Positions 583-40,283 of a DNA stretch of 41,316 nt are shown in pieces. Position numbers and translations under genes: made by a program. The notes under the pieces are model-generated. The model worked only from the letters and a program-made list of their open reading frames with translations. It did not search any database and had not been told where the DNA came from. The stretch is taken from the IMG/VR virus record IMGVR_UViG_2681813145_000006, one strand, 5' to 3'. Source of the DNA: a virus. Its lineage: Duplodnaviria; Heunggongvirae; Uroviricota; Caudoviricetes. Position 1 is the stretch's first letter; every line of letters starts with the position of its first letter.

Positions 583-3500
583 TATGCGAGCCTCACAATA
601 TAGTTAAATGCGATGTTTTTGACGGTGTTTTCCGCGTTACCAGCAGCGTTAACGGTGATGGTGTGTCCATGTGAGCCAATCGCAACCGAGTGCGTATGCG
701 CACCAATACCTACAGTATGTGCATGTGCGCCAGAACTTGCTGCAGTACCAGACAGCGAGTGGGTATGAGCACCTGCTGACTGTGTCTGAATACGTTGATA
801 ATACGATCTACTGGAAGAAGTCCCCGGGCTTACTTGATACTGTGAATCCTTGACATAAGTGAACCCACCGCCATCATAAAATGCTAACGCAGAACCGCCG
901 CCTCCTGGCCAACGAATACCATTACCATGAGTATGAGCACCGGCAGACCCCGTAGAGCCACTCAGACTGTGCGTATGCGCCCCGGTGTTATTCGTGGATT
1001 TAGTGCCGTAATCAAACGACGATGTGGTTTTCGTCCCCAAATCCGTACTGGATGCGCTGGCGCTGTGGGTGTGCGATTTAATGCCGTCCTGTTCCTGAGA
1101 CAATACGGCACGACCACTGGCAGGTTTGCCCTTAATCGTCCAGCCACGCATATCAGGGATCACGCCTGACGGATAAGCGGCTGCAAGTTTCGGGTAGGCA
1201 GATTTGTCAAAAGTCTGCCCCTGCATCAGGGCATAACCAGACGGAACGGTATCTGATGGCCACGGGATTGGTGCGCCGACTGGGTAGCTTTCTGGTGGAA
1301 GATTTTTCGAGGTATAAACTTCTGCCCAGTCTTCCTCAAAACCATAGCCATCTCTTGAGGAACGGTAGAACAGACCTCCATTTCTGTAATGCGCCTTCAT
1401 CTGCAGGGTCCGGCAACTTCCGACTCCGGTATAGAAGTTAACCAGAATATAGCTGTCGCCAGAGCGGGTGACATTGTAAGCGCCTGATTCGGCATTCCAG
1501 GGAACGCCACCATCCGCATCGGCATATGTATCCGTTGCCCTTCTGGCAAAAGCAGCCACATGCGCGGCGGTTAAAGTAATATCTTTGGAACCATCAAACT
1601 CAACACCAGAAACCAGTCTTGGCGTTTGCAGCTTTGTTGCTGTTAATGCATTACCGTTCAGACTTGCGGACAGTTTGGTTCCAATAATCAGTTCGCCGGT
1701 TGCGTTATCAATAGCAAACGGTCTTAATGTATTCCAGCCACCATAAACATCACCTTGATTGGTAAGCAGCAGGTAAGTTTTAGCGCCATCATTACGCCAT
1801 AATGCACCATACTCCCCACCTATCATTCGAATCTGATTACCACCACGCGCTACAATTTCGTCTGTGGCAAAAAGTTTTTTGCACGACAAGTTATCGTTAA
1901 CGATTAACGAATGAGACTCATAAAAACCACGGCCACTCTTAAAATCAAGGATAACGTCCGCCGCGATACATTCAGTCGCTGGATTTGTTGCCCCAAACTT
2001 ATAGGTCGTATCATTAACAACGAGATCAGCACCAGGTGCGGATATTGACAGGCCATCTTCAATAAACGCAAAAACAGGGAAAGCAGCACCATCAACATAG
2101 AACACAGAGCGCAAATCATCGCCCTTATTACTCATCATTATTGAGTGGATGGCTCGTTCATTGTTTTGATATTGCCAGAACATTCCATAAGCATAACGCC
2201 CCCTGTCAGTCCAGCCACCAGGCATAACAAACCCGTTAAACTCGCAGTTATTCATCGGATCGCCTGCGGTTCGCGTTGCCGTGGTGATAATGACCCTTGA
2301 TGCCAGTTCGCTTACTGAGCCAGCAGAACGCATAACAACAACAGGGTAATATCTTCCAGATATTGCACCTGCAGGAGCGTTAACCCGCACATAACGCATA
2401 CCACGCTTATCAGCAAAGTCTGTTTTACTGACCGCGTTAATGTTGTTCAGGAAGCGTCCCTTATCGGGTATATCAGCGCCGTTCTGGTCTTTCTGCAGAC
2501 GTTTCTCTGCATTGTCATAGGCTGATTTTACTGCCTTTGGCGTTGCCGCCAGCGTTTCAGACGAACTGTTGGTCGCACTGCTGAGCTGTACTATCCCCTT
2601 TTTCGTCGTGCTCGCATCCTCAAGCGCCACGGCGGATGCAATATCCTCTGCCCGTTTTGCCGCTGTCTCAGCGCGCGTTGCTGCGGATTCCGCCGTACTT
2701 TTGCTCTGAGCTGCTGCCGTCGCACTGCCAGCTGCCTCTGTCGCCTTCGTGGATGCCGTCGTGGCGCTGCTCTTCGCTGCTGACGCCTGTCTGGTCGCCT
2801 CATCTTTTGAAGCAGACGCAGATGATGCCGATGACGCTGCCGAACTGGCGGACGATGCGGCTGCCGTTTTTGAGGATTCTGCACGGGTTTCCGACGCTTT
2901 CGCATTCGTTTCGGATGTCTTCGCTGCGGAAGCAGACCTCGCTGCTGCGCTGGCCTGTACAGCGGCTTCGCCAGCCTTCGTTGTGGCTGTTGAAGCGGAC
3001 GATGCAGCACTTTCTGCCGATTTTCCGGCGGCGGTGGCACTGGCTGAGGCCTGCCCGGCACTTGTTGACGCGGCACTGGCAGACGACGCAGCCGCTGTTT
3101 TTGAGCCTGCCGCAGCTGAGGCACTCTGTCCCGCTGCCGTTTCAGAAGCCTTGGCGTTCGTCTCGGACGTTTTTGCCGCCTTCGCAGAATTTGCTGTCGC
3201 CGTTGCCGAGGAAGCTGCGCTGCTGGCGCTCGAGGCTGCGCTCGTTTCTGATGATTTTGCCGCCTCTTTTGAAGCCGACGCATCCCGGGCTGAGGTGGCA
3301 GCTTCTGACGCTTTCGTGGTCGCGGTGGATGCTGAAGTGGCTGCTGATTGTTGTGACGCTGCCGCATTCGTTTCTGACGTTTTTGCCGCAGCGGCACTGG
3401 TGGCCGCCGCGCTTTTTGAGGACTCTGCAGCGGCAGCACTTTTTGATGCTTCAGTGGCCTTTGCTGATGCCGTTCCTGCGCTGGAAGACGCTGACTGAGC

Positions 3501-3995
3501 CGACGAAGCGGCCTGTCCGGCTGACGTGCTGGCTGCGCGTGCTGAGCCTGCAGCATCAGTCGCATGGGTTGCCGCCTCACGGGCAGATGTGCCGGCATCG
3601 CCGGCTGACTTCTTCGCGGCTGCCGTGTTCTGTGCCACTGCGGACGCGTTACGCGCCACCTCTTCCACCATCAGTTCAAAACGGCGCAGTGCCTCTGGCC
3701 GGACATCATCCTCCGTCATTGCACCGAGGAAATCATTCAGTGTGCCCGGCTTTGAGTCCTCATATACGGTGATAATCCCGGCGTGTGACGGCGGGAATCC
3801 CTCCACCAACAGACTGACGCTGTACTGACCATACTCGACGTCCATTGTGTAACGCCCGGCTTCATCCGGGTTTTCTGAGGCCACTGTGTTCACCACCACC
3901 GTGGTGCTGTTGCGCCTGGCCTTTAGCTGAATGGTGCAGTTTTGTATCGGCTTACCTGCGCCATCTTTCAGTACACCTGAAATCCGTACTGCCAT
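582..3995 (-). CDS. stf: Side tail fiber protein (lambda Stf-like), 1137 aa, with a long Ala/Ser/Thr-rich repeat tract
   Basis: ATG at 3993-3995; N-terminus [12 protein letters not shown]...[19 protein letters not shown] and C-terminal His-rich GAHTHSLSG / GIGAHTHSV motifs resemble lambda Stf as recalled. Confidence 0.85.
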
Positions 3996-24002: not shown

Positions 24003-24380
24003 TCAGCGTTTCAACTGAAAGTGAGGTCCGTCTTTCAGTGTTTTCCAGTCCCCGCCCCATTCGATGGCAGTTCCCAGCTCTGCGGCAGCCTGCTTAAATG
24101 CCTGCGCGATTTTCTCGTACAGAGGCCAGTCCCATGACACCAGGCTGCCAATGTAGGCCACAACATCCACTGCATCACCGGTCAGGTGGCGGCTGTTCAT
24201 GGTCTGGCTTTTCCCTTCCGCGACCAGCTGTTTCTGGCGATACTTACTGCGCAGGCCTTCCGTAATACCGAAATCAACCTCCGTCAGCTCCAGCGCACGG
24301 CGAACTACAGCAACCAGCTGTGGTTTAACGCCCTCCAGATTCTTTTCGCTGCGACGACTAAATCTGAATTTACCCGACAT
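24003..24380 (-). CDS. Endolysin, peptidase M15 family (L-alanyl-D-glutamate peptidase-like), 125 aa
   Basis: ATG at 24378-24380 preceded by GAGGTG; motifs SRHLTGDAVDVVAY and EWGGDW typical of M15 peptidases. Confidence 0.7.
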   Translation of the reverse strand: MSGKFRFSRRSEKNLEGVKPQLVAVVRRALELTEVDFGITEGLRSKYRQKQLVAEGKSQTMNSRHLTGDAVDVVAYIGSLVSWDWPLYEKIAQAFKQAAAELGTAIEWGGDWKTLKDGPHFQLKR

Positions 24381-24382
24381 AT

Positions 24383-24658
24383 TCACCTCAACAATGGAAA
24401 AATTTTTGTGACGTTCCCGCGCGCGCGTATCACCAGCACGCAGAACAGCAGATTAAAAAACACTTCCAGCCAGCCCGTTGCTAACGGGCGACCACACAGA
24501 TAGCTGAGGGGCGCAAAGGCATACAACAGCATCAGCAGCCAGGCCAGCCATGACATCAATGGTTTGTGTCTGGAGTCACGACGACGATAAAAAAAGAGCG
24601 TCAGCACGATAACCGTGCATAACGCCACATTCAGCAATCCGGGAAGGTTACTTAACAT
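24383..24658 (-). CDS. Lysis-cassette membrane protein with three hydrophobic helices, 91 aa (holin partner or antiholin-like)
   Basis: ATG at 24656-24658 preceded by GGAGGAGG; three hydrophobic segments; overlaps the holin stop by 11 nt. Confidence 0.45.
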   Translation of the reverse strand: MLSNLPGLLNVALCTVIVLTLFFYRRRDSRHKPLMSWLAWLLMLLYAFAPLSYLCGRPLATGWLEVFFNLLFCVLVIRARGNVTKIFPLLR

Positions 24659-25040
24659 TGCCGCCTCCTCCGCCCCGCAGGCGGGAGAACAGACCGGACA
24701 CCAGTGATGCAATATCCTGCTGGTGGATGAACGAGAGAATCTTCACCGACACCACTGACACCAGCACTGCACACAGTGCGTCGACAGGCGCACCGTCAAA
24801 CTCTGTATGCTTTACCAGCCAGGATGCCAGAACCTCTGCACCCAGCACACCGATAATAAACGACACAAGAAAATGCGCCGCCACACGCCAGGCTGAAAGC
24901 GCCTGCGGCATTGTTGCCACAAACAACGCTCCCGCAAACGCACCAAACACAATCCCGAAATCCGTTCCGGTAAACAGCCCGAATACCGTCGCCCCACCGA
25001 GCGCCGCAGCCGTGCCGGAACCGGATAAGGGTTCAGACAT
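24648..25040 (-). CDS. Putative holin, 130 aa
   Basis: Start set at ATG 25038-25040 (MSEPLSGSG...) preceded by AGGAGA; hydrophobic helices then charged C-terminus; first gene of the lysis cassette. Confidence 0.55.
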   Translation of the reverse strand: MSEPLSGSGTAAALGGATVFGLFTGTDFGIVFGAFAGALFVATMPQALSAWRVAAHFLVSFIIGVLGAEVLASWLVKHTEFDGAPVDALCAVLVSVVSVKILSFIHQQDIASLVSGLFSRLRGGGGGNVK

Positions 25041-25212: not shown

Positions 25213-25236
25213 TAAAAAAACCGCCTAGTACGGCGG
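25213..25236 (-). terminator. Rho-independent terminator downstream of the AT-rich cargo operon
   Basis: Stem CCGCC/GGCGG (25221-25225 / 25232-25236), A-run 25213-25220 gives a U-tract on the minus transcript. Confidence 0.5.
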
Positions 25237-25331: not shown

Positions 25332-25841
25332 TTATTTGCGTTTATTGACAGGTAATATAGAATTAGCAGCATCTTTCTCTCTCTCTTGGAACGAGTTATG
25401 TCTTTTAACCATATCAGGACCAATGAGACTATAAATTACTGTCAACAGTTGCCATAAAGTTAAAAAAACCAAAATGGCATATGACGCGCCCCTAAAAATG
25501 TCCTTGTGATCTATAAAAAACGGTATCTGTTTTACTAATGGCGCAACAACGCCAATAATTAAAACTGATGCTAAAATAGCAGTAGAATGTACAATTGGTG
25601 TAAATAACCTTGTAATCCCACTGCCATTAGATTCACTCGCTGAACTGCCACCTCTAAATGATTTTTTTAATCGTTCAGGATAGATTATCGCAAACCAAGC
25701 TCCCACAACTGCAAAGATAATGGATGCTGTAGTTCGCAGGGCCTCATAAAGAGGCCACTGGGATGAGAAGGGAACATTCTTCCCAAAATAGGCAGAAAAA
25801 ATCAGAACGACCATAAGAAAAATTCCACCTAAGATTTTCAT
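25332..25841 (-). CDS. Four-helix integral membrane protein, 169 aa, second gene of the AT-rich cargo cassette
   Basis: ATG at 25839-25841 directly after the upstream stop (TAGATG) with GGGA SD; four hydrophobic segments; family not recognised. Confidence 0.65.
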   Translation of the reverse strand: MKILGGIFLMVVLIFSAYFGKNVPFSSQWPLYEALRTTASIIFAVVGAWFAIIYPERLKKSFRGGSSASESNGSGITRLFTPIVHSTAILASVLIIGVVAPLVKQIPFFIDHKDIFRGASYAILVFLTLWQLLTVIYSLIGPDMVKRHNSFQEREKDAANSILPVNKRK

Positions 25842-26694
25842 CTACATTCCCGCCTCGCGTAATATGAGCTCCCTTTTGCCTACAAGTTCAGAAAGAAGAG
25901 ATTCCGAGGACACAAACTCGGCGTCCTGTCGCTCCAAATTCAAGTGGAATTTGGTTCGTGCTAATGAACGACTGAGCCAATATGTCGTTGGATCTCCTTT
26001 AAATACAAAACCATAATCACAAGAGTTTGTATCGCTATGTTTATTCCAATCATCAATCATCCCCTCGATGTCATCAATATCAACATTCGGAGAAAGTTCA
26101 TATTTAATTTTTGTTGAGGTATTTGCAGTTTGTGGATGGCTAATATTCATATTAATCAATAGTTTTTGCCACAGGCTAAACTCGTCAGGTTTTGACACAT
26201 CAAGTTCAACAACCTTTTCAATTTTAGAAACAATATTAGCATTCTGCCTAATAACTTCATGTTTACCAGGATTTCTTACTAAACCAGCTACGAACTGTGG
26301 ATAGTGTTTTTTCTTTGGCAGCACATCATCTGTTGGGTTAATTTTATAGCCCTTGATAACCACCTCATGCGTGCCATCTTCCTTCTCCACACTTTCCGCC
26401 ACAACGTGGCTTGATGACTGTTTTAAAAAATGATAGAGATAGCATTGCATCGCCTTCTGTCCCGTCAAAGCATGGTTAAACTTGATGCTAGCCACTAAAT
26501 CCATGGATGGAATAAACCAAAAGTAAGTAGCAAAACCAGGAATACTTCCCTTCTGGATTGAATTAAGTATTACTGTTGGGTCCGTACCAAATTCTGTATC
26601 TTCCTGAACCGATGGAACACTTTGATCTGTAGAAGGAACCTCATTCCAGAGCAACAAAACCACATTGTCACCAGCACGTTTCATATCCAGAAGA
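25842..26694 (-). pseudogene. C-terminal part (about 284 codons) of an unrecognised cargo gene split by IS1
   Basis: Frame is open from the IS1 boundary to the stop at 25842-25844; the listed ORF start at 26706-26708 is a TTG inside the IS1 end; first native ATG is 26682-26684 (MKRAGD...). Confidence 0.7.
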
Positions 26695-26709
26695 GGTAAT
26701 GACTCCAAC

Positions 26710-27213
26710 TTATTGATAGTGTTTTATGTTCAGATAATGCCCGATGACTTTGTCATGCAGCTCCACCGATTTTGAGAACGACAGCGACTTCCGTCCCAGC
26801 CGTGCCAGGTGCTGCCTCAGATTCAGGTTATGCCGCTCAATTCGCTGCGTATATCGCTTGCTGATTACGTGCAGCTTTCCCTTCAGGCGGGATTCATACA
26901 GCGGCCAGCCATCCGTCATCCATATCACCACGTCAAAGGGTGACAGCAGGCTCATAAGACGCCCCAGCGTCGCCATAGTGCGCTCACCGAATACGTGCGC
27001 AACAACCGTCTTCCGGAGACTGTCATACGCGTAAAACAGCCAGCGCTGGCGCGATTTAGCCCCGACATAGCCCCACTGTTCGTCCATTTCCGCGCAGACG
27101 ATGACGTCACTGCCCGGCTGTATGCGCGAGGTTACCGACTGCGGCCTGAGTTTTTTAAGTGACGTAAAATCGTGTTGAGGCCAACGCCCATAATGCGGGC
27201 AGTTGCCCGGCAT
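26710..27213 (-). CDS. insB: IS1 transposase InsB frame (expressed as the InsAB' frameshift fusion)
   Basis: 167-aa ORF inside IS1; the A6C slippery run lies at 27150-27156 on the plus strand. Confidence 0.85.
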
Positions 27214-27407
27214 CCAACGCCATTCATGGCCATATCAATGATTTTCTGGTGCGTACCGGGTTGAGAAGCGGTGTAAGTGAACTGCAGTTGCCATGTTTTA
27301 CGGCAGTGAGAGCAGAGATAGCGCTGATGTCCGGCGGTGCTTTTGCCGTTACGCACCACCCCGTCAGTAGCTGAACAGGAGGGACAGCTGATAGAAACAG
27401 AAGCCAC
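27132..27407 (-). CDS. insA: IS1 protein InsA, 91 aa
   Basis: ORF inside IS1 with GTG start at 27405-27407; Cys-rich N-terminus [10 protein letters not shown]. Confidence 0.85.
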
Positions 27408-27462
27408 TGGAGCACCTCAAAAACACCATCATACACTAAATCAGTAAGTTGGCAGCATCACC

Positions 27463-27659
27463 TCCAGAAGATAAGCAGGTAAAACCTCATCATTTGCTTC
27501 ATATGTCTTTGTCTGTTTGAGTTTTTTCCCTTCTGCCCATAAAGCAAGATCTGTGAGCAACTCGTCACAACCACCAAATGCAGGGCTTACAACACCGTAA
27601 CGGTAGTAACCACATTTTTGAATTTTATAGAACGTAATCGTTACAGTTTCAGAAACCAT
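27463..27659 (-). pseudogene. N-terminal part (about 65 codons) of the same IS1-split cargo gene
   Basis: ATG at 27657-27659; the frame runs into IS1 and joins 25842-26694 in frame when IS1 plus one duplication copy (777 bp) is removed. Confidence 0.7.
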
Positions 27660-27830
27660 AAACTCTTATCCAAATGAAGTAGGGAAGAGTCTAATTTAAT
27701 ACCAATTCATTTAAAGTGGTTACTGGTTATTTGATCATATTGATAGTGTACAAACATACAGTATCATATCCACATCCTGCATCAAAGCAGGAATCACCTA
27801 TTGTTAGATACCATACATACTGTTTTTACG

Positions 27831-27859
27831 ATCAACAAAAGCCCACTCGGAGGCGGGCT
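27831..27859 (-). terminator. tR'-like terminator downstream of the late promoter
   Basis: Hairpin AGCCC...GGGCT (27840-27859) followed on the minus transcript by TTTTGTTGATCG. Confidence 0.45.
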
Positions 27860-27906
27860 GTAAAAATTCCTCTAACGTCAGGCATAAAACGCCCATCGTT
27901 AGGGCG

Positions 27907-27934
27907 AATTTAACACAGATTCGGGAAAAATCAA
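27907..27934 (-). promoter_or_regulatory. Late promoter pR'-like (-35 TTGATT, 16-nt spacer, -10 TAAATT)
   Basis: On the minus strand, -35 is the complement of 27929-27934 and -10 the complement of 27907-27912; sits just 3' of the Q-like gene, as pR' does in lambda. Confidence 0.5.
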
Positions 27935-27939
27935 CGATA

Positions 27940-28761
27940 CTATCGCGTTACCCTCTTTAACTGCCGCTCCGCCCATGCCTCTTCAATGTCAAACCGAACC
28001 ACCAACGTATCGTAAAAGCGTTTCACTGATTTTTTCCACGTATCAAGCGTGATAGCACTCGTCACTTTGCGTATGGCATTAAATGCCTCCGTTGATGGTA
28101 GTCTTTCATAGCCACGACCACCACAACGCTGGCAGTCTCTGATAACAGGCATACCACGTTTTACCGACTCTTCACGATGAATGGCGACACCACGCCCACG
28201 GCAATCCTTACAGGCGGTGGAAACCTCACCCTTTCCGCCACACTCCGGACACGCAACTTTTACCACCTCCCTGACTTTTTTCCATTCTTCCCAGTAAGAC
28301 GGATACACACCTTTCGTACACTTTGCCCATACCGGCGGCTTACCATCCGGATACTGGACCTTGTTTGTAAAAACTATGCTTTCAATAAATTTTTCCCCAT
28401 AGCAACAAGGGCACTGCTTTTTACTCGCTGCGCTGCGGGCATAATCCTCAAAAGCGTACGAAGCCATAATGCGCATCACTACCGGTTTTATTTCTGCCGG
28501 AAGTTTTCTCAACGCCGCCACACGATCGCACCGACTGAGTGCATAATCTGCCAGTAATTCTGTTGCCCGCGCCCTGTCATTCATACTGATGCCCATTTTC
28601 CCCAGGAACGCAGAAAAACCCATCTCAGCCCGATTCTGTGTCATGCCCTGCGCGGCCATCACATCAGTGATACTCAGCGCATCTTTTGACGTTGAGGCCG
28701 ATGCATCGGTCAGGCCAGGGGATTTTGGGGAGTAGTATTTCGGTAAATCTTCCAGTTTCAT
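27940..28761 (-). CDS. Putative late-gene antiterminator (Q-like) with CxxC zinc-finger repeats, 273 aa
   Basis: ATG at 28759-28761; motifs CPCCYGEKF, CPECGGKG, CKDCRGRG, CQRCGGRG; located between rusA and the pR'-like promoter. Confidence 0.55.
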   Translation of the reverse strand: MKLEDLPKYYSPKSPGLTDASASTSKDALSITDVMAAQGMTQNRAEMGFSAFLGKMGISMNDRARATELLADYALSRCDRVAALRKLPAEIKPVVMRIMASYAFEDYARSAASKKQCPCCYGEKFIESIVFTNKVQYPDGKPPVWAKCTKGVYPSYWEEWKKVREVVKVACPECGGKGEVSTACKDCRGRGVAIHREESVKRGMPVIRDCQRCGGRGYERLPSTEAFNAIRKVTSAITLDTWKKSVKRFYDTLVVRFDIEEAWAERQLKRVTR

Positions 28762-30468: not shown

Positions 30469-30540
30469 CTGTTTTCTCTGCTGGCGCAGCAGGTGTCAGG
30501 TGTTCAGGCTGACGTGCGAATTGTAAACCAGAATGCCAGG

Positions 30541-30567
30541 AAAAAACAAAACCCGCCGAAGCGGGTT
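30541..30567 (-). terminator. Rho-independent terminator 3' of the Hok locus
   Basis: Stem ACCCGC/GCGGGT (30551-30556 / 30561-30566), loop CGAA, A-run 30541-30550 gives a U-tract on the minus transcript. Confidence 0.6.
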
Positions 30568-30635
30568 AAGTGCGGGTGCGTTGAGGATGCCTGACTCATC
30601 AGAGGTGGCGAGGGATTTCTCCCTCGCCAGGTCTC

Positions 30636-30791
30636 TTACTCCTCAGGTTCGTAAGCTGTGAAGACAGCGACCTCCGTCTGGCCGGTTCGGATTCGTACCT
30701 CGCAGAGGTCTTTCCTCGTTACCAGTGCCGTCACAATGACGGTTAAACAGATGACGATCAGGGCGATTAACATCGCCTTTTGCTGCTTCAT
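30636..30791 (-). CDS. hokD: Hok/Gef family membrane toxin, 51 aa (HokD/RelF-like)
   Basis: ATG at 30789-30791 preceded by AAGGAGAA; MKQQKAMLIALIVICLTVIVTALVTRKDLCEVRIRTGQTEVAVFTAYEPEE has the Hok pattern; the listed ORF carries a 19-codon in-frame upstream extension. Confidence 0.75.
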   Translation of the reverse strand: MKQQKAMLIALIVICLTVIVTALVTRKDLCEVRIRTGQTEVAVFTAYEPEE

Positions 30792-31028
30792 AGCCTGCTT
30801 CTCCTTGCCTTTCGGCACGTAAGAGGCTAACCTAGATTTGCCGTTCATAGATTGAGCCTCAGATTAATGTTAAGCGTCTTGCCGGACGCGTAATGTTAAC
30901 TGGGGCTTTTCTCTATCTGCCTTTCAGTGTTCATGCCTGAGACAGATAGCCTCAAGCACCCGCAGCCATTCTACTTAACTCACGTCACCTCGCCAATATG
31001 AAATCAATCAGAAAGGTGATCCATAAAA

Positions 31029-31715
31029 TCACTCCTTCTCTTCTTTTCCGTAGTGGAGTTGGCCAATTTTGATAAGAGGGCGTCCCTGAGATTTGCGGTG
31101 TAGATTGGTATCGCGCAGAGAATACACACAGCCACAATATTCCTGCTGATAGAATTTTTCGCGCTTGCTGATTTCAATCATACGGGACGAGCCGCCCTGC
31201 TTGCGCCAGTTATAATCCCAGTACACCATACCCGGATAATGCGCAACAGCTCGCCGCCCACACTCGTTAACCTGCTGCATATTTTTCCAGCGTGAAATGC
31301 CCAGTGAACTGCTGATCACACTGAAACCATTTTCAGCAGCGTACAACGCTGTCCGCTCAAAACGCATGTCAAAACACATGGTACAACGGATCCCCCTCTC
31401 AGGCTCCCATTCCATTCCTTTGGCACGTTCAAACCAGTTGTCGGTGTCGTAATCAGCATCGATAAACGGCACGCCGTGTTGTTCAGCAAAGCGAATATTT
31501 TCATCCTTACGAATTAAATACTCTTTCTGAGGATGAATGTTCGGGTTGTAGAAAAAGATGGTGTAGTCGATTCCCGAGGCCTGAAGCGCCTCCATCACTT
31601 CACCGGAACATGGAGCACAGCAAGAGTGCAGTAGTAGTTTGTTTGCCCCGTTTGGGAGCTCCAATTTAGGCCGTTTGAAATCAGCAATAGTCATAAATAT
31701 TTTTATTGGGGTCAT
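31029..31715 (-). CDS. queH: Epoxyqueuosine reductase QueH-like protein (DUF208), 228 aa
   Basis: Motif [11 protein letters not shown] near the N-terminus and several further conserved Cys; an alternative ATG lies at 31692-31694. Confidence 0.65.
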
Positions 31716-33476: not shown

Positions 33477-33902
33477 TCAATGTACTGCCACAGCATTTCC
33501 TGCCGGGCCACCACGGTTCATCTGATTGAAACCGGCGATTGCCACTGCGACAAAATCATCAGCGTCTCTCACCAATCGCTCCCGCGTCTCCACCAGCTCC
33601 CGAAAATAAGCTGAACTGTGGCTGCGCATTCTGGCCACCAGCAAAGGTGGCATTGCCTTTTCGATCGCTGGTAACAACGCCTGAATTTTTTCAACTGCAT
33701 CAGGGGTGTCTTTCTCTACCCAGCGGAAAATTTTCTGGGTATTGCGAGCCAAGGCTTCCGGATGGCTGTCGTCATACAGTTCCGGGAACGTCATTCCCAG
33801 CTCGAAATACGCTTTGGTAATTTTCGCAGCCGGTACTTTTTCGCCGTCCGGATGCGCCCAGGCATTCATCGCCATGCGGATGTGTTCATGCTTGATTTTC
33901 AT
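33477..33902 (-). CDS. YdaT-like protein (putative CII-like regulator), 141 aa
   Basis: ATG at 33900-33902 preceded by AGGAG; second gene of the rightward early operon; the name is by size and synteny with Rac ydaS-ydaT. Confidence 0.5.
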   Translation of the reverse strand: MKIKHEHIRMAMNAWAHPDGEKVPAAKITKAYFELGMTFPELYDDSHPEALARNTQKIFRWVEKDTPDAVEKIQALLPAIEKAMPPLLVARMRSHSSAYFRELVETRERLVRDADDFVAVAIAGFNQMNRGGPAGNAVAVH

Positions 33903-33905
33903 GAA

Positions 33906-34166
33906 TCAACTCCTAGAAAGTGGTTGTGTTAACATTTTGGTATCTTCCAGCTCGGGCCAAATATTCATCCAATCAAAAGGCCTTAGTTGCTGACGTGTAA
34001 CTTCACCATTACTGCCTCGCTCAATAAGGACACATAACGATGCCCCTAACACTTGACCTTTACTCAATGCCTTTCTTAGATAACCGATGCTGGTACCACA
34101 CTCGCATGCAAACATACGCTGTTCATCTGACGAAAGAGAATTGAGAAATATTCTTAATTCTTCCAT
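33906..34166 (-). CDS. Cro/DicC-like HTH regulator, 86 aa
   Basis: ATG at 34164-34166 preceded by AAGGAG; divergent from the repressor gene. Confidence 0.55.
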   Translation of the reverse strand: MEELRIFLNSLSSDEQRMFACECGTSIGYLRKALSKGQVLGASLCVLIERGSNGEVTRQQLRPFDWMNIWPELEDTKMLTQPLSRS

Positions 34167-34176
34167 AGCTACTCCT

Positions 34177-34268
34177 TAGTAAACACAGCAAAGAATACCC
34201 ATAGGTAAACAAAAGTCAATACCCACAGGTTGTTTACCTTGCAGTAATCGCATCTATTATTTACCTAT
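34177..34268. promoter_or_regulatory. Immunity-region operators and divergent promoters
   Basis: Repeated half-sites TAGTAAACA (34177), TAGGTAAACA (34202), inverted TGTTTACCT (34231) and TTTACCTAT (34260) in the 100-bp gap between divergent regulator genes. Confidence 0.5.
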
Positions 34269-34686
34269 GGACAAATATGAATTTAGACGACAGCAACTCA
34301 TCAAAATTCGTGATGAGAAATGCGATGGTAAAGCGGTTAACGTGGCCAGAAAGATCGGGCGCGAGCCTTCTTATGTATCAAGAATGTTGTACCCAGAGGG
34401 GAAAAAGGGAAAAAAACGGATCGCTGATGATATGGTGGAGATTATCGAAGAGTCCTTTGGGTTACCCCGGGGATGGATGGATGGTATCGTTTCATCATCA
34501 ACGAACACAGCCTCCAGTTATGAAACAAGGGTTCTAACGCCACGACAACGTATTTTTTTAGATCTCTTAGACGAGCTCCCTGACAGTGAAGCGGATAACT
34601 TATTAAAAACTCTTGAAGAGAAAAAACAGAAGTACAATGCAATTTACGAAGAGTTAGCACGAAAGAAAAAACAAAAAGCCTCTTAA
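34267..34686 (+). CDS. DicA/CI-like repressor (HTH, XRE family), 139 aa
   Basis: ATG at 34267; HTH around AVNVARKIGREPSYVSRML; C-terminal helical tail resembling DicA as recalled. Confidence 0.6.
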   Translation: MDKYEFRRQQLIKIRDEKCDGKAVNVARKIGREPSYVSRMLYPEGKKGKKRIADDMVEIIEESFGLPRGWMDGIVSSSTNTASSYETRVLTPRQRIFLDLLDELPDSEADNLLKTLEEKKQKYNAIYEELARKKKQKAS

Positions 34687-34776
34687 ACCAGCATAAATCC
34701 GGTAGCGCCTTCCTCCGGGTTTGTGCTTCACTTTATCCCATCTCATTTTTTTACACACAGAATGTACTAAAAGTAC

Positions 34777-39054: not shown

Positions 39055-39258
39055 ATGAGCAGCTTATTTTTAACCGAAGATGAATTGCTAATATTAACGG
39101 GCTGCAAATATGCAAGCCACCAGCGAAAATGGTTAATGGAAAACGGGCTTCCGTTCTATACCAATCGTAGTGGCAAACCGATTGTCAGCCGGGATCTATT
39201 TACCTGCAATAAAACTTTACCACCACGCGAGGTAGAGCCGAATTTTGGTGCGATCTGA
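39055..39258 (+). CDS. xis: Excisionase-like small protein, 67 aa
   Basis: ATG at 39055; stop overlaps the int start (ATGA); position immediately 5' of the integrase gene. Confidence 0.5.
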   Translation: MSSLFLTEDELLILTGCKYASHQRKWLMENGLPFYTNRSGKPIVSRDLFTCNKTLPPREVEPNFGAI

Positions 39259-40283
39259 TGGGAAGACGAAGGAAAAATCCTGAACACGAAAAATTACCTC
39301 CAAATGTATACCCAAATAAATATAGTTATGTATGGAAACCAACATCCAGAGAATCTGTCACACTAACCGCCATCAAGGATGGTTTAGCTGCTTTATGGAA
39401 AAAGTATGAGGAAACTGTAAATAATCGCGATCGTGCAATGACATTCGGTCGCTTGTGGGAAAAATTCCTCGCCAGCGCCTATTACAGTGACCTTAGTCCA
39501 AGAACACAAAAAGATTATCTGCAACATCAAAAAAAGTTGCTTGCCGTATTCGGTAAGGTACCAGCGGATTCCATAAAACCAGAACACATCCGTCGATACA
39601 TGGACAAAAGAGGGGAGCAGAGTAAAACGCAAGCCAACCATGAAAAAAGCAGTATGTCCCGTGTTTACAGTTGGGGGTATGAGCGAGGGTACGTGAAGGC
39701 TAACCCATGTGCAGGTGTAAGTAAATTCAAGGCCAAAAACCGCGAACGATATGTAACCGACAAAGAATACCAGGCAGTATTAAGCGTTGCACCTCTTCCT
39801 GTTTTTATCGCAATGGAAATTGCCTATCTGTGTGCAGCGAGGGTTTCCGATGTGTTATCGCTGAAATGGGAACAGATTGGAAACGACGGGATATTCATCC
39901 AGCAAGGGAAAACCGGAAAAAAACAGATAAAAGCATGGAGTCCACGATTACAGGCAGCGATCGAAAAAGCAAAACAGTTACCAAAATCTGCCTATGTGAT
40001 CAGCAATCAATACGGCAACCGATATATGTACAAAGGCTTTAACGAAATGTGGGTAGATGCAAGAAATCGTGCTGGAAAAATTTCAGGTATTTTAACCGAC
40101 TTCACCTTTCATGATCTGAAGGCGAAAGGAATTTCAGACTATGAAGGAAGCAGCCGGGATAAGCAACTTTTCTCTGGTCACAAAACCGAAGGGCAAGTGC
40201 TAATCTATGACAGGAAGGTTAAAGTTTCACCAACACTTGATGTCCCGTTACCTGAAAATATTCCAAGAAAATATTCCAAGTAA
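39258..40283 (+). CDS. int: Tyrosine-type phage integrase, 341 aa
   Basis: ATG at 39258; C-terminal catalytic region FHDLKAKG...SGHKTEGQVLIYDR; adjacent to a tRNA gene. Confidence 0.85.
   Translation: MGRRRKNPEHEKLPPNVYPNKYSYVWKPTSRESVTLTAIKDGLAALWKKYEETVNNRDRAMTFGRLWEKFLASAYYSDLSPRTQKDYLQHQKKLLAVFGKVPADSIKPEHIRRYMDKRGEQSKTQANHEKSSMSRVYSWGYERGYVKANPCAGVSKFKAKNRERYVTDKEYQAVLSVAPLPVFIAMEIAYLCAARVSDVLSLKWEQIGNDGIFIQQGKTGKKQIKAWSPRLQAAIEKAKQLPKSAYVISNQYGNRYMYKGFNEMWVDARNRAGKISGILTDFTFHDLKAKGISDYEGSSRDKQLFSGHKTEGQVLIYDRKVKVSPTLDVPLPENIPRKYSK

Follow-up and report, generated by a model that had tools for sequence, protein, structure and literature searches.

In the temperate phage lambda, rexA and rexB lie beside cI in the immunity region, under the pRM promoter; a gene for a soluble protein of the RexA/RdgC fold is directly followed by a gene for a protein with four transmembrane (TM) segments, the stop and start of the two genes abut, and the RexA:RexB ratio governs toxicity (PMC11077077). 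In lysogens, the pair is co-transcribed with the repressor, and it keeps out T4 rII and other phages by depolarising the membrane. A second described system comes from the hotspots of P4 satellites: it was cloned as “RexA + 4TM” (pFR81, from E. coli IAI75; Rousset et al., 2022), and the Domainator paper labels it PDC-M18 (PMC11754643), the name of a candidate defence system in PADLOC. Here we analyse the virus record IMGVR_UViG_2681813145_000006, a stretch of 41,316 nucleotides (“the window” in the following), which is a lambda-like E. coli prophage that has head genes of the HK97 type and is integrated beside mtfA. It carries a two-gene PDC-M18 module (genes A and B), and a canonical insertion sequence (IS), IS1, has very probably inactivated the first gene of this module in recent times. 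The genes of the module and those around it all lie on the minus strand; Table 1 gives their coordinates.

The identity of the module comes from profile searches. The product of gene A, once its reading frame is restored (see below), matches the PADLOC model PDLC04494 (PDC-M18A) with an E-value of 1.1e-138, residues 1-343 aligning to positions 1-337 of the 339 in the model; and gene B, adjacent and on the same strand, matches model PDLC04500 (PDC-M18B) with an E-value of 3.4e-75. Neither A nor B matched any Pfam family, even at E 10. By these profile matches, the module is a member of PDC-M18. The cloned pFR81 system matches the PDC-M18A and PDC-M18B models as well, its protein being 21% identical to A over the whole length (searching the supplements of Rousset et al. 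for exact motifs and accessions gave no match, and the system was identified through the notes to the tables instead). The P4-satellite system (hotspot system #4 in Rousset et al., 2022) has the same gene order and the same abutting genes as the module in the window; in contrast to it, the copy described here is not in the psu-int hotspot but in a lambdoid prophage, between the antiterminator gene Q and the lysis genes, and its gene A is interrupted by IS1. Another system of the same study, “Hydrolase + 3TM”, was rejected as the identity of these genes, as A has no relation to its protein 1, a HAD hydrolase. We found 71 homologues of A, in Enterobacterales, Chromobacterium, Achromobacter, Halomonas, Vibrio, and others; nearly all are 337-367 amino acids (aa) long, and their names are uninformative throughout. 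Conservation among them includes the N-terminal 66 residues (G17, W41, and T50 are invariant; F10, L35, and Y63 nearly so). The B family is large, with 370 representative clusters reaching E 0.001 or better; in a public assembly collection, 3437 indexed blocks contain the exact B protein.

The element within gene A is identical (100% over all 768 bp) to many plasmid copies annotated as “IS1-like element IS1A family transposase”. Its left end, at 26695, opens with GGTAATGACTCCAACTTATTGAT, and its right end, at 27462, is the reverse complement of GGTGATGCTGCCAACTTACTGAT (the short end motifs are GGTAATGACTCC and, reverse-complemented at the other end, GGTGATGCTGCC); the terminal inverted repeats are imperfect, with agreement between the two ends at 18 of the 23 outermost positions. 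In its length, its ends, its insA and insB genes, its A6C frameshift site, its 9-bp target duplication, and its AT-rich target, the element is of the same kind as the known IS1A/IS1R-type insertions of E. coli; what is new is the target, an accessory gene of a prophage downstream of Q. IS1 prefers AT-rich sites, and the GC content of the target here is 35-42%.

The initial annotation of the window, which had been made from the sequence alone, placed IS1 between identical 9-bp repeats, and both copies do read TCCAGAAGA; this 9-mer is absent from the rest of the window on both strands, and the chance agreement of a given pair of 9-mers is about 4e-6. Excising IS1 together with one repeat takes out 777 bp (3 × 259) and joins the two frames at the proposed junction, PAYLL-D-MKRAGDNVV, which gives back a minus-strand open reading frame (ORF) of 1041 nt encoding 346 aa, plus the stop. 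The duplication corresponds to nucleotides 189-197 of the gene strand, running from base 3 of codon 63 through base 2 of codon 66, so the split that had been described as following codon 65 is confirmed, with the break inside codon 66. After 65 native residues, the N-terminal fragment runs into the IS1 end, which supplies EVMLPTY and a stop.

Table 1. Positions of the IS1 insertion, the PDC-M18 module, and the surrounding features in the window.
Feature	Position	Strand	Remarks
Late-gene antiterminator Q	27940..28761	-	273 aa; Pfam PF03589 Antiterm (E 4e-52); PHROG anti-termination protein Q-like
Candidate pR'	27907..27934	-	TTGATT, 16-nt spacer, TGtTAAATT; directly after the Q stop; read by eye
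Two hairpin-plus-T-run sites	27906-27890 and 27859-27840 (within 27830..27906)	-	Scan for terminator-like sites
Gene A (PDC-M18A), 5' fragment	27472..27659	-	Codons 1-63; with the repeat copy 27463-27471, through codon 65
72-aa fusion ORF, start of gene A into IS1	27441-27659	-	
Target-site duplication copy, insA side (left inverted repeat, IRL)	27463..27471		TCCAGAAGA
IS1 (IS1A type)	26695..27462	-	Exactly 768 bp; insA then insB, in the direction of gene A and of the late operon
insA	27132-27407	-	91 aa
A6C -1 frameshift motif	27148-27158		TTAAAAAACTC; IS1 position 305; joins the insA and insB frames
insB frame	26710-27213	-	
Target-site duplication copy, insB side (right inverted repeat, IRR)	26686..26694		TCCAGAAGA
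Gene A, 3' fragment	25842..26685	-	Codons 67-346; possible 280-aa remnant from ATG 26682-26684
Gene B (PDC-M18B)	25332..25841	-	169 aa, intact; ATG abuts the gene A stop
Terminator-like hairpin and T-run closing the cargo module	25213..25236 (site 25236-25221)	-	Scan
Lysis cassette (two holins and an M15 endolysin)	24003..25040	-	Pfam Phage_holin_8, Phage_holin_3_7, and Peptidase_M15_4; gene calls

Comparison with IS1-free alleles, which the initial annotation had proposed, was carried out by searching the in-silico excised region (1831 bp) against 5426 complete E. coli genomes. The region is carried by 33 of them, in 32 cases in one uninterrupted piece: identity to the excised sequence is 100% in 8 genomes and 99.2-99.9% in another 24, all of which have it as a single piece. 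These natural alleles have a single copy of TCCAGAAGA at the empty site. A 120-bp probe over the left IS1 junction, by contrast, found the junction covered in 0 of the 5426 complete genomes, and the 72-aa fusion ORF, which only the IS1 allele can encode, was found on just two contigs: KQ087895.1 of GCA_001030505.1 (the locus on this contig is 100% identical to 17441-37659 of the window, which makes this assembly its likely source), and a contig in the Logan assembly of SRR2135098. In addition, strain KKo009 has an IS1-free prophage with which the whole window is colinear at 99.9% identity, and the alignments of the two on either side of IS1 overlap by exactly the 9-bp target. Because the flanks show zero divergence from intact alleles, the insertion is young, and the proposal of a recent transposition into a previously intact gene is borne out by the perfect repeats, the undiverged flanks, and the lack of a filled site in the complete genomes.

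Since multicopy IS1 often confuses short-read assembly, and the allele is present in two assemblies only (maybe from one strain), the element could be suspected of being an assembly artefact, or else the IS1 allele could be ancestral and the intact alleles products of precise excision. We regard both as extremely improbable: complete IS1 ends with a perfect 9-bp duplication are the signature of transposition and not of a mis-join, and two assemblies that were built separately (NCBI and Logan) both contain the junction ORF; moreover, the intact alleles are far commoner, being present beside two different lysis cassettes and also in other genera, and IS elements are seldom excised precisely. Judged from these alignments, the insertion is genuine, young, and restricted to one strain lineage.

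We then compare the module with lambda Rex at the level of structure. A is predicted to be a cytoplasmic protein whose fold is closest to those of lambda RexA and RdgC, so that the predicted structure gives the soluble component a RexA/RdgC-type fold. In Foldseek searches with the model of A, the best match in the PDB was RdgC, at E 0.016, with nothing below E 0.001; against BFVD, the search returned five uncharacterised phage proteins (best E 4e-11), none of them named. A hidden Markov model of the A family gave only insignificant colicin matches among the PDB sequences. B is a predicted four-helix inner-membrane protein: its AlphaFold2 model has four long helices, at a pLDDT (predicted local distance difference test) of 91.6, and its hydrophobic segments (1-19, 35-53, 88-106, and 122-140) are spaced like those of RexB (8-26, 42-60, 84-102, and 116-134). 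The layout of rexA-rexB, with the soluble gene first, the four-TM gene directly downstream, abutting stop and start, and a temperate phage as carrier, is the same as that of the module.

A link to lambda Rex at the sequence level was rejected. The RexA signatures (Pfam PF15969 and the PADLOC RexA model) gave no match to A even at E 10, and the RexB signatures (PF15968 and the PADLOC RexB model) none to B, while as a control the PADLOC RexA and RexB models did recognise the lambda proteins; with hhalign, aligning the A family to a RexA family of 25 members gave a probability of 0.4%, and aligning the B family to the RexB family gave 0.8%. Fold and architecture alone support the link, and the module is Rex-like in these two respects and not a member of the RexAB sequence families. 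It also differs from RexAB in that A is 67 residues longer than RexA, and in its location: RexAB belongs to the immunity region, whereas the module is in the late region, downstream of Q and about 6 kb from the repressor/cro region (~33900-34700). The Rex-likeness of PDC-M18 is not a new idea (Rousset et al., 2022); structural support for it is added here. Kiwa (KwaA, and KwaB with DUF4868) likewise consists of two genes, for a four-TM and a soluble protein, and is likewise found in P4 hotspots. It was rejected as the identity of the module, as there is no DUF4868 match and the membrane gene lies downstream here, whereas KwaA is upstream; no relevant paper connecting KwaB with RdgC turned up in a literature search.

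The function of A is almost certainly lost, as judged from the structural model. The IS1 break falls within a predicted strand (residues 62-70) of the N-terminal sheet, and the 72-aa fusion keeps beta1, beta2, and helix alpha1. The remnant on the other side of IS1 lacks roughly a third of the domain core (beta1, beta2, alpha1, and half of beta3), together with the invariant G17, W41, and T50. It has three in-frame starts: ATG 26682-26684 (280 aa), TTG 26706-26708 (288 aa), and GTG 26661-26663 (273 aa); and a 280-aa gene was called on it in the annotation of GCA_001030505.1. The initial annotation had raised the possibility that an outward IS1 end drives a truncated product from the ATG, which begins 11 nt past the IS1 end. 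We did find a potential hybrid promoter, with a -35 of TTGGAG in the IS1 end and a -10 of TATGAA in the flank. Its transcript would start downstream of the ATG, so this route to the 280-aa product fails geometrically, and no Shine-Dalgarno sequence precedes the ATG (the upstream sequence is AGTCATTACCTCTTCTGGAT). The only possible route to the remnant is read-through from the insA promoter of IS1 (27455-27428) or from upstream. IS1 is co-oriented, transcripts of either origin could enter the remnant, and the starts are right at the IS1 end (the TTG one base after the insB stop), so a partly functional truncated A, begun at the ATG (280 aa) or at the TTG (288 aa), might be made from transcripts leaving IS1; given the position of the ATG relative to the hybrid promoter and its lack of a ribosome-binding sequence, the missing invariant residues and core strands, and the nearly uniform full length of the 71 homologues, we consider this highly unlikely.

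The module occupies the position of the cargo (moron) genes between Q and the lysis genes of lambdoid phages, of which stx is an example: downstream of Q and pR'-tR', and upstream of the holin. Like stx-type cargo, it has a low GC content relative to the phage (39.5% in A and 37.3% in B, compared to 50.9% in the window) and is followed by a terminator-like site; unlike stx in the Shiga toxin (Stx) phages, the cargo here is a candidate anti-phage module and not a toxin. Genes with DUF968 and RusA domains (Pfam) lie upstream of Q. The candidate pR' scores 8/12, which is under the threshold of the scanner, so this promoter assignment is putative, and the hairpin at 27859-27840 is likely tR'. Both hairpins near Q are at most 100 nt from its stop, and the first of them (27906-27890) would begin right at the predicted pR' start; it may be part of a Q-loading or pause region rather than a terminator. 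About 120-135 nt beside Q (~27806-27940 in the window) are kept at 88-95% identity in about 1600 other E. coli genomes that have different cargo, and such conservation fits a Q-linked block of promoter and terminator. The block from Q to ~25056 is common (~97.6% identity) to prophages that have the other lysis cassette (essD holin, DUF1327, lysozyme, and Rz), which argues that the cargo travels with this type of Q and not with the lysis genes. The best sigma-70-like match in the spacer between Q and the cargo is on the plus strand (27740-27767; TTGATA, 16 nt, TATCAT; 10/12) and points away from the cargo, antisense into Q.

As the initial annotation had stated, IS1 lies between pR' and the late genes, with the Q and pR'-tR' region on one side and the lysis and morphogenesis genes on the other. 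IS1 insertions are classically strongly polar in either orientation; this one is on the transcribed strand between Q/pR' and every lysis and structural gene, and its insB is barely translated and would offer Rho a long untranslated stretch. The initial annotation had thus suspected polarity on lysis and morphogenesis, and at the extreme the whole late operon would be affected, so that the prophage could neither lyse the cell nor make particles. A strong polar block of lysis and morphogenesis is in our judgement improbable, and so is that extreme outcome. The terminator-like hairpins at 27859-27840 and 25236-25221 flank the cargo and must be passed anyway, so late transcription already depends on antitermination by Q; no intrinsic terminator was predicted within IS1 on the minus (transcribed) strand; and within IS1 the GC skew of about -0.1 to -0.16 makes the plus strand C-rich, so the late transcript is G-rich and poor for Rho loading. 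Q-modified RNA polymerase reportedly withstands termination of either kind, intrinsic or Rho-dependent, and suppresses polarity (work of Forbes and Herskowitz in 1982 and of the Roberts laboratory). The literature on Stx phages was searched for direct evidence on polarity from an IS element (IS1203) placed between Q and lysis, with nothing usable returned. A lower expression of B in the uninduced lysogen is more plausible than polarity on the late genes, and we predict it because the largely untranslated insB invites Rho-dependent termination.

Put together, these observations suggest how the insertion would act. By analogy with Rex, an intact A may sense an infecting phage and activate B, after which membrane energetics would collapse and the infection would be aborted. 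IS1 severs the first 65 residues of A, cutting strand beta3 of the N-terminal sheet, which would leave A non-functional and the module off; it would also lower the expression of B in the lysogen, and after induction the Q-modified polymerase would read through IS1, so that lysis and morphogenesis would be little affected. Three points weigh against this interpretation. PDC-M18 is a candidate defence system only, and its tested, distant P4 relative pFR81 is not among the validated systems: it appears in Table S2B (“additional tested systems”), apart from the validated systems in Table S2A (Rousset et al., 2022). Expression of the cargo in the lysogen is putative, because the minus strand between tR' and gene A (27660-27840; gene A starts at 27659) has no convincing sigma-70 promoter, with none at the scanner threshold and by-eye candidates scoring at most 8/12. 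Finally, any effects that IS1 may have on B and the late genes are predicted ones.

Gene A is interrupted by other IS elements elsewhere. In CP61_Sichuan (NZ_CP053730.1, 2830-4086 of the locus), a co-oriented IS3 of 1258 bp lies at A codons 75/76, a site equivalent to 26657-26660 in the window and about 30 bp from the IS1 site; the prophage has a different lysis cassette, and a 271-aa annotated remnant is left. In GCA_036281835.1 (~2590-3918 of the locus), a 1329-bp IS10-like element lies on the opposite strand at about codon 320; it encodes a 402-aa DDE_Tnp_1 transposase and is flanked by a 9-bp target duplication. Three independent IS insertions in A, compared to none seen in B, are suggestive and not significant, because A is twice as long as B, one of the cases came from a search with intact B, and the AT-rich region is favoured by IS1. 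The two further insertions, together with the role of the RexA:RexB ratio in lambda toxicity mentioned above, would agree with selection for the insertion, in which A is costly, self-toxic, or interfering with resident prophages, and IS knock-outs that spare B are repeatedly favoured. We find this rather unlikely: there are three events among thousands of carriers (to judge from the 3437 blocks with the exact B), the search that found the IS10-like case was biased against seeing disruptions of B, and the length of A and its AT-rich target are as just described. Equally doubtful is a bolder proposal: that PDC-M18 is a genuine and widespread abortive-infection system of the Rex type, diverged past sequence recognition and riding with a particular Q at its junction with the lysis genes, whose sensor A is recurrently silenced by IS elements because it is costly or hinders prophage induction.

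A separate observation concerns PDLC04496, one of the six PDC-M18A models in PADLOC. It has only 271 positions, which correspond to residues 76-346 of A. Truncated gene calls, of which the 271-aa IS3 remnant is an example, may have gone into its making, and it could score IS-disrupted remnants as matches.

The comparison with KKo009 also describes the rest of the prophage. In KKo009, the prophage is bordered by zinT on one side and, on the other, by a tRNA-Ser gene beside mtfA. The sole stretch of the window that is not colinear with it is 33914-34569, where a 656-bp segment is replaced; the segment spans an 86-aa Cro-like gene (33906-34166, minus strand) and the 5' part of a 139-aa repressor-like gene (34267-34686, plus strand), and the replacement looks like a swap of the immunity region. 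The integrase is annotated as frameshifted in KKo009 (41452-42502 of the locus), and the window has an ORF of 341 codons at 39258-40283, in a third alignment block with two gaps. By colinearity with KKo009, the early region of the window (~30500-31715) holds genes for a hokD-type toxin and QueH (epoxyqueuosine reductase), beside Rac-like YdaT, DicB, and exonuclease VIII; this is a mosaic in which early genes of the Rac/Qin type are combined with HK97-type head genes.

IS1 insertions into accessory genes of prophages are common, and the event described here is real but ordinary; the broken gene is of more interest. The initial annotation was right about the anatomy and the recency of the insertion, is unlikely to be right about late polarity and the outward-driven product, and left the gene unidentified. 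Three things are added here: the target is identified as the sensor gene of a Rex-like candidate abortive-infection module, that likeness gains structural support, and a natural pair of knock-out and intact alleles is provided. For annotation, two “hypothetical” fragments and an IS1 become one disrupted PDC-M18A gene, and the strain is to be scored as lacking this candidate system. The IS1 knock-out and the near-isogenic intact prophage of KKo009 (99.9% identical) form a pair with which the defence by PDC-M18, and the polarity of IS1 under Q antitermination, can be tested. If the doubtful proposal of a recurrently silenced sensor were true, IS insertion would be a natural off-switch for a prophage defence module.

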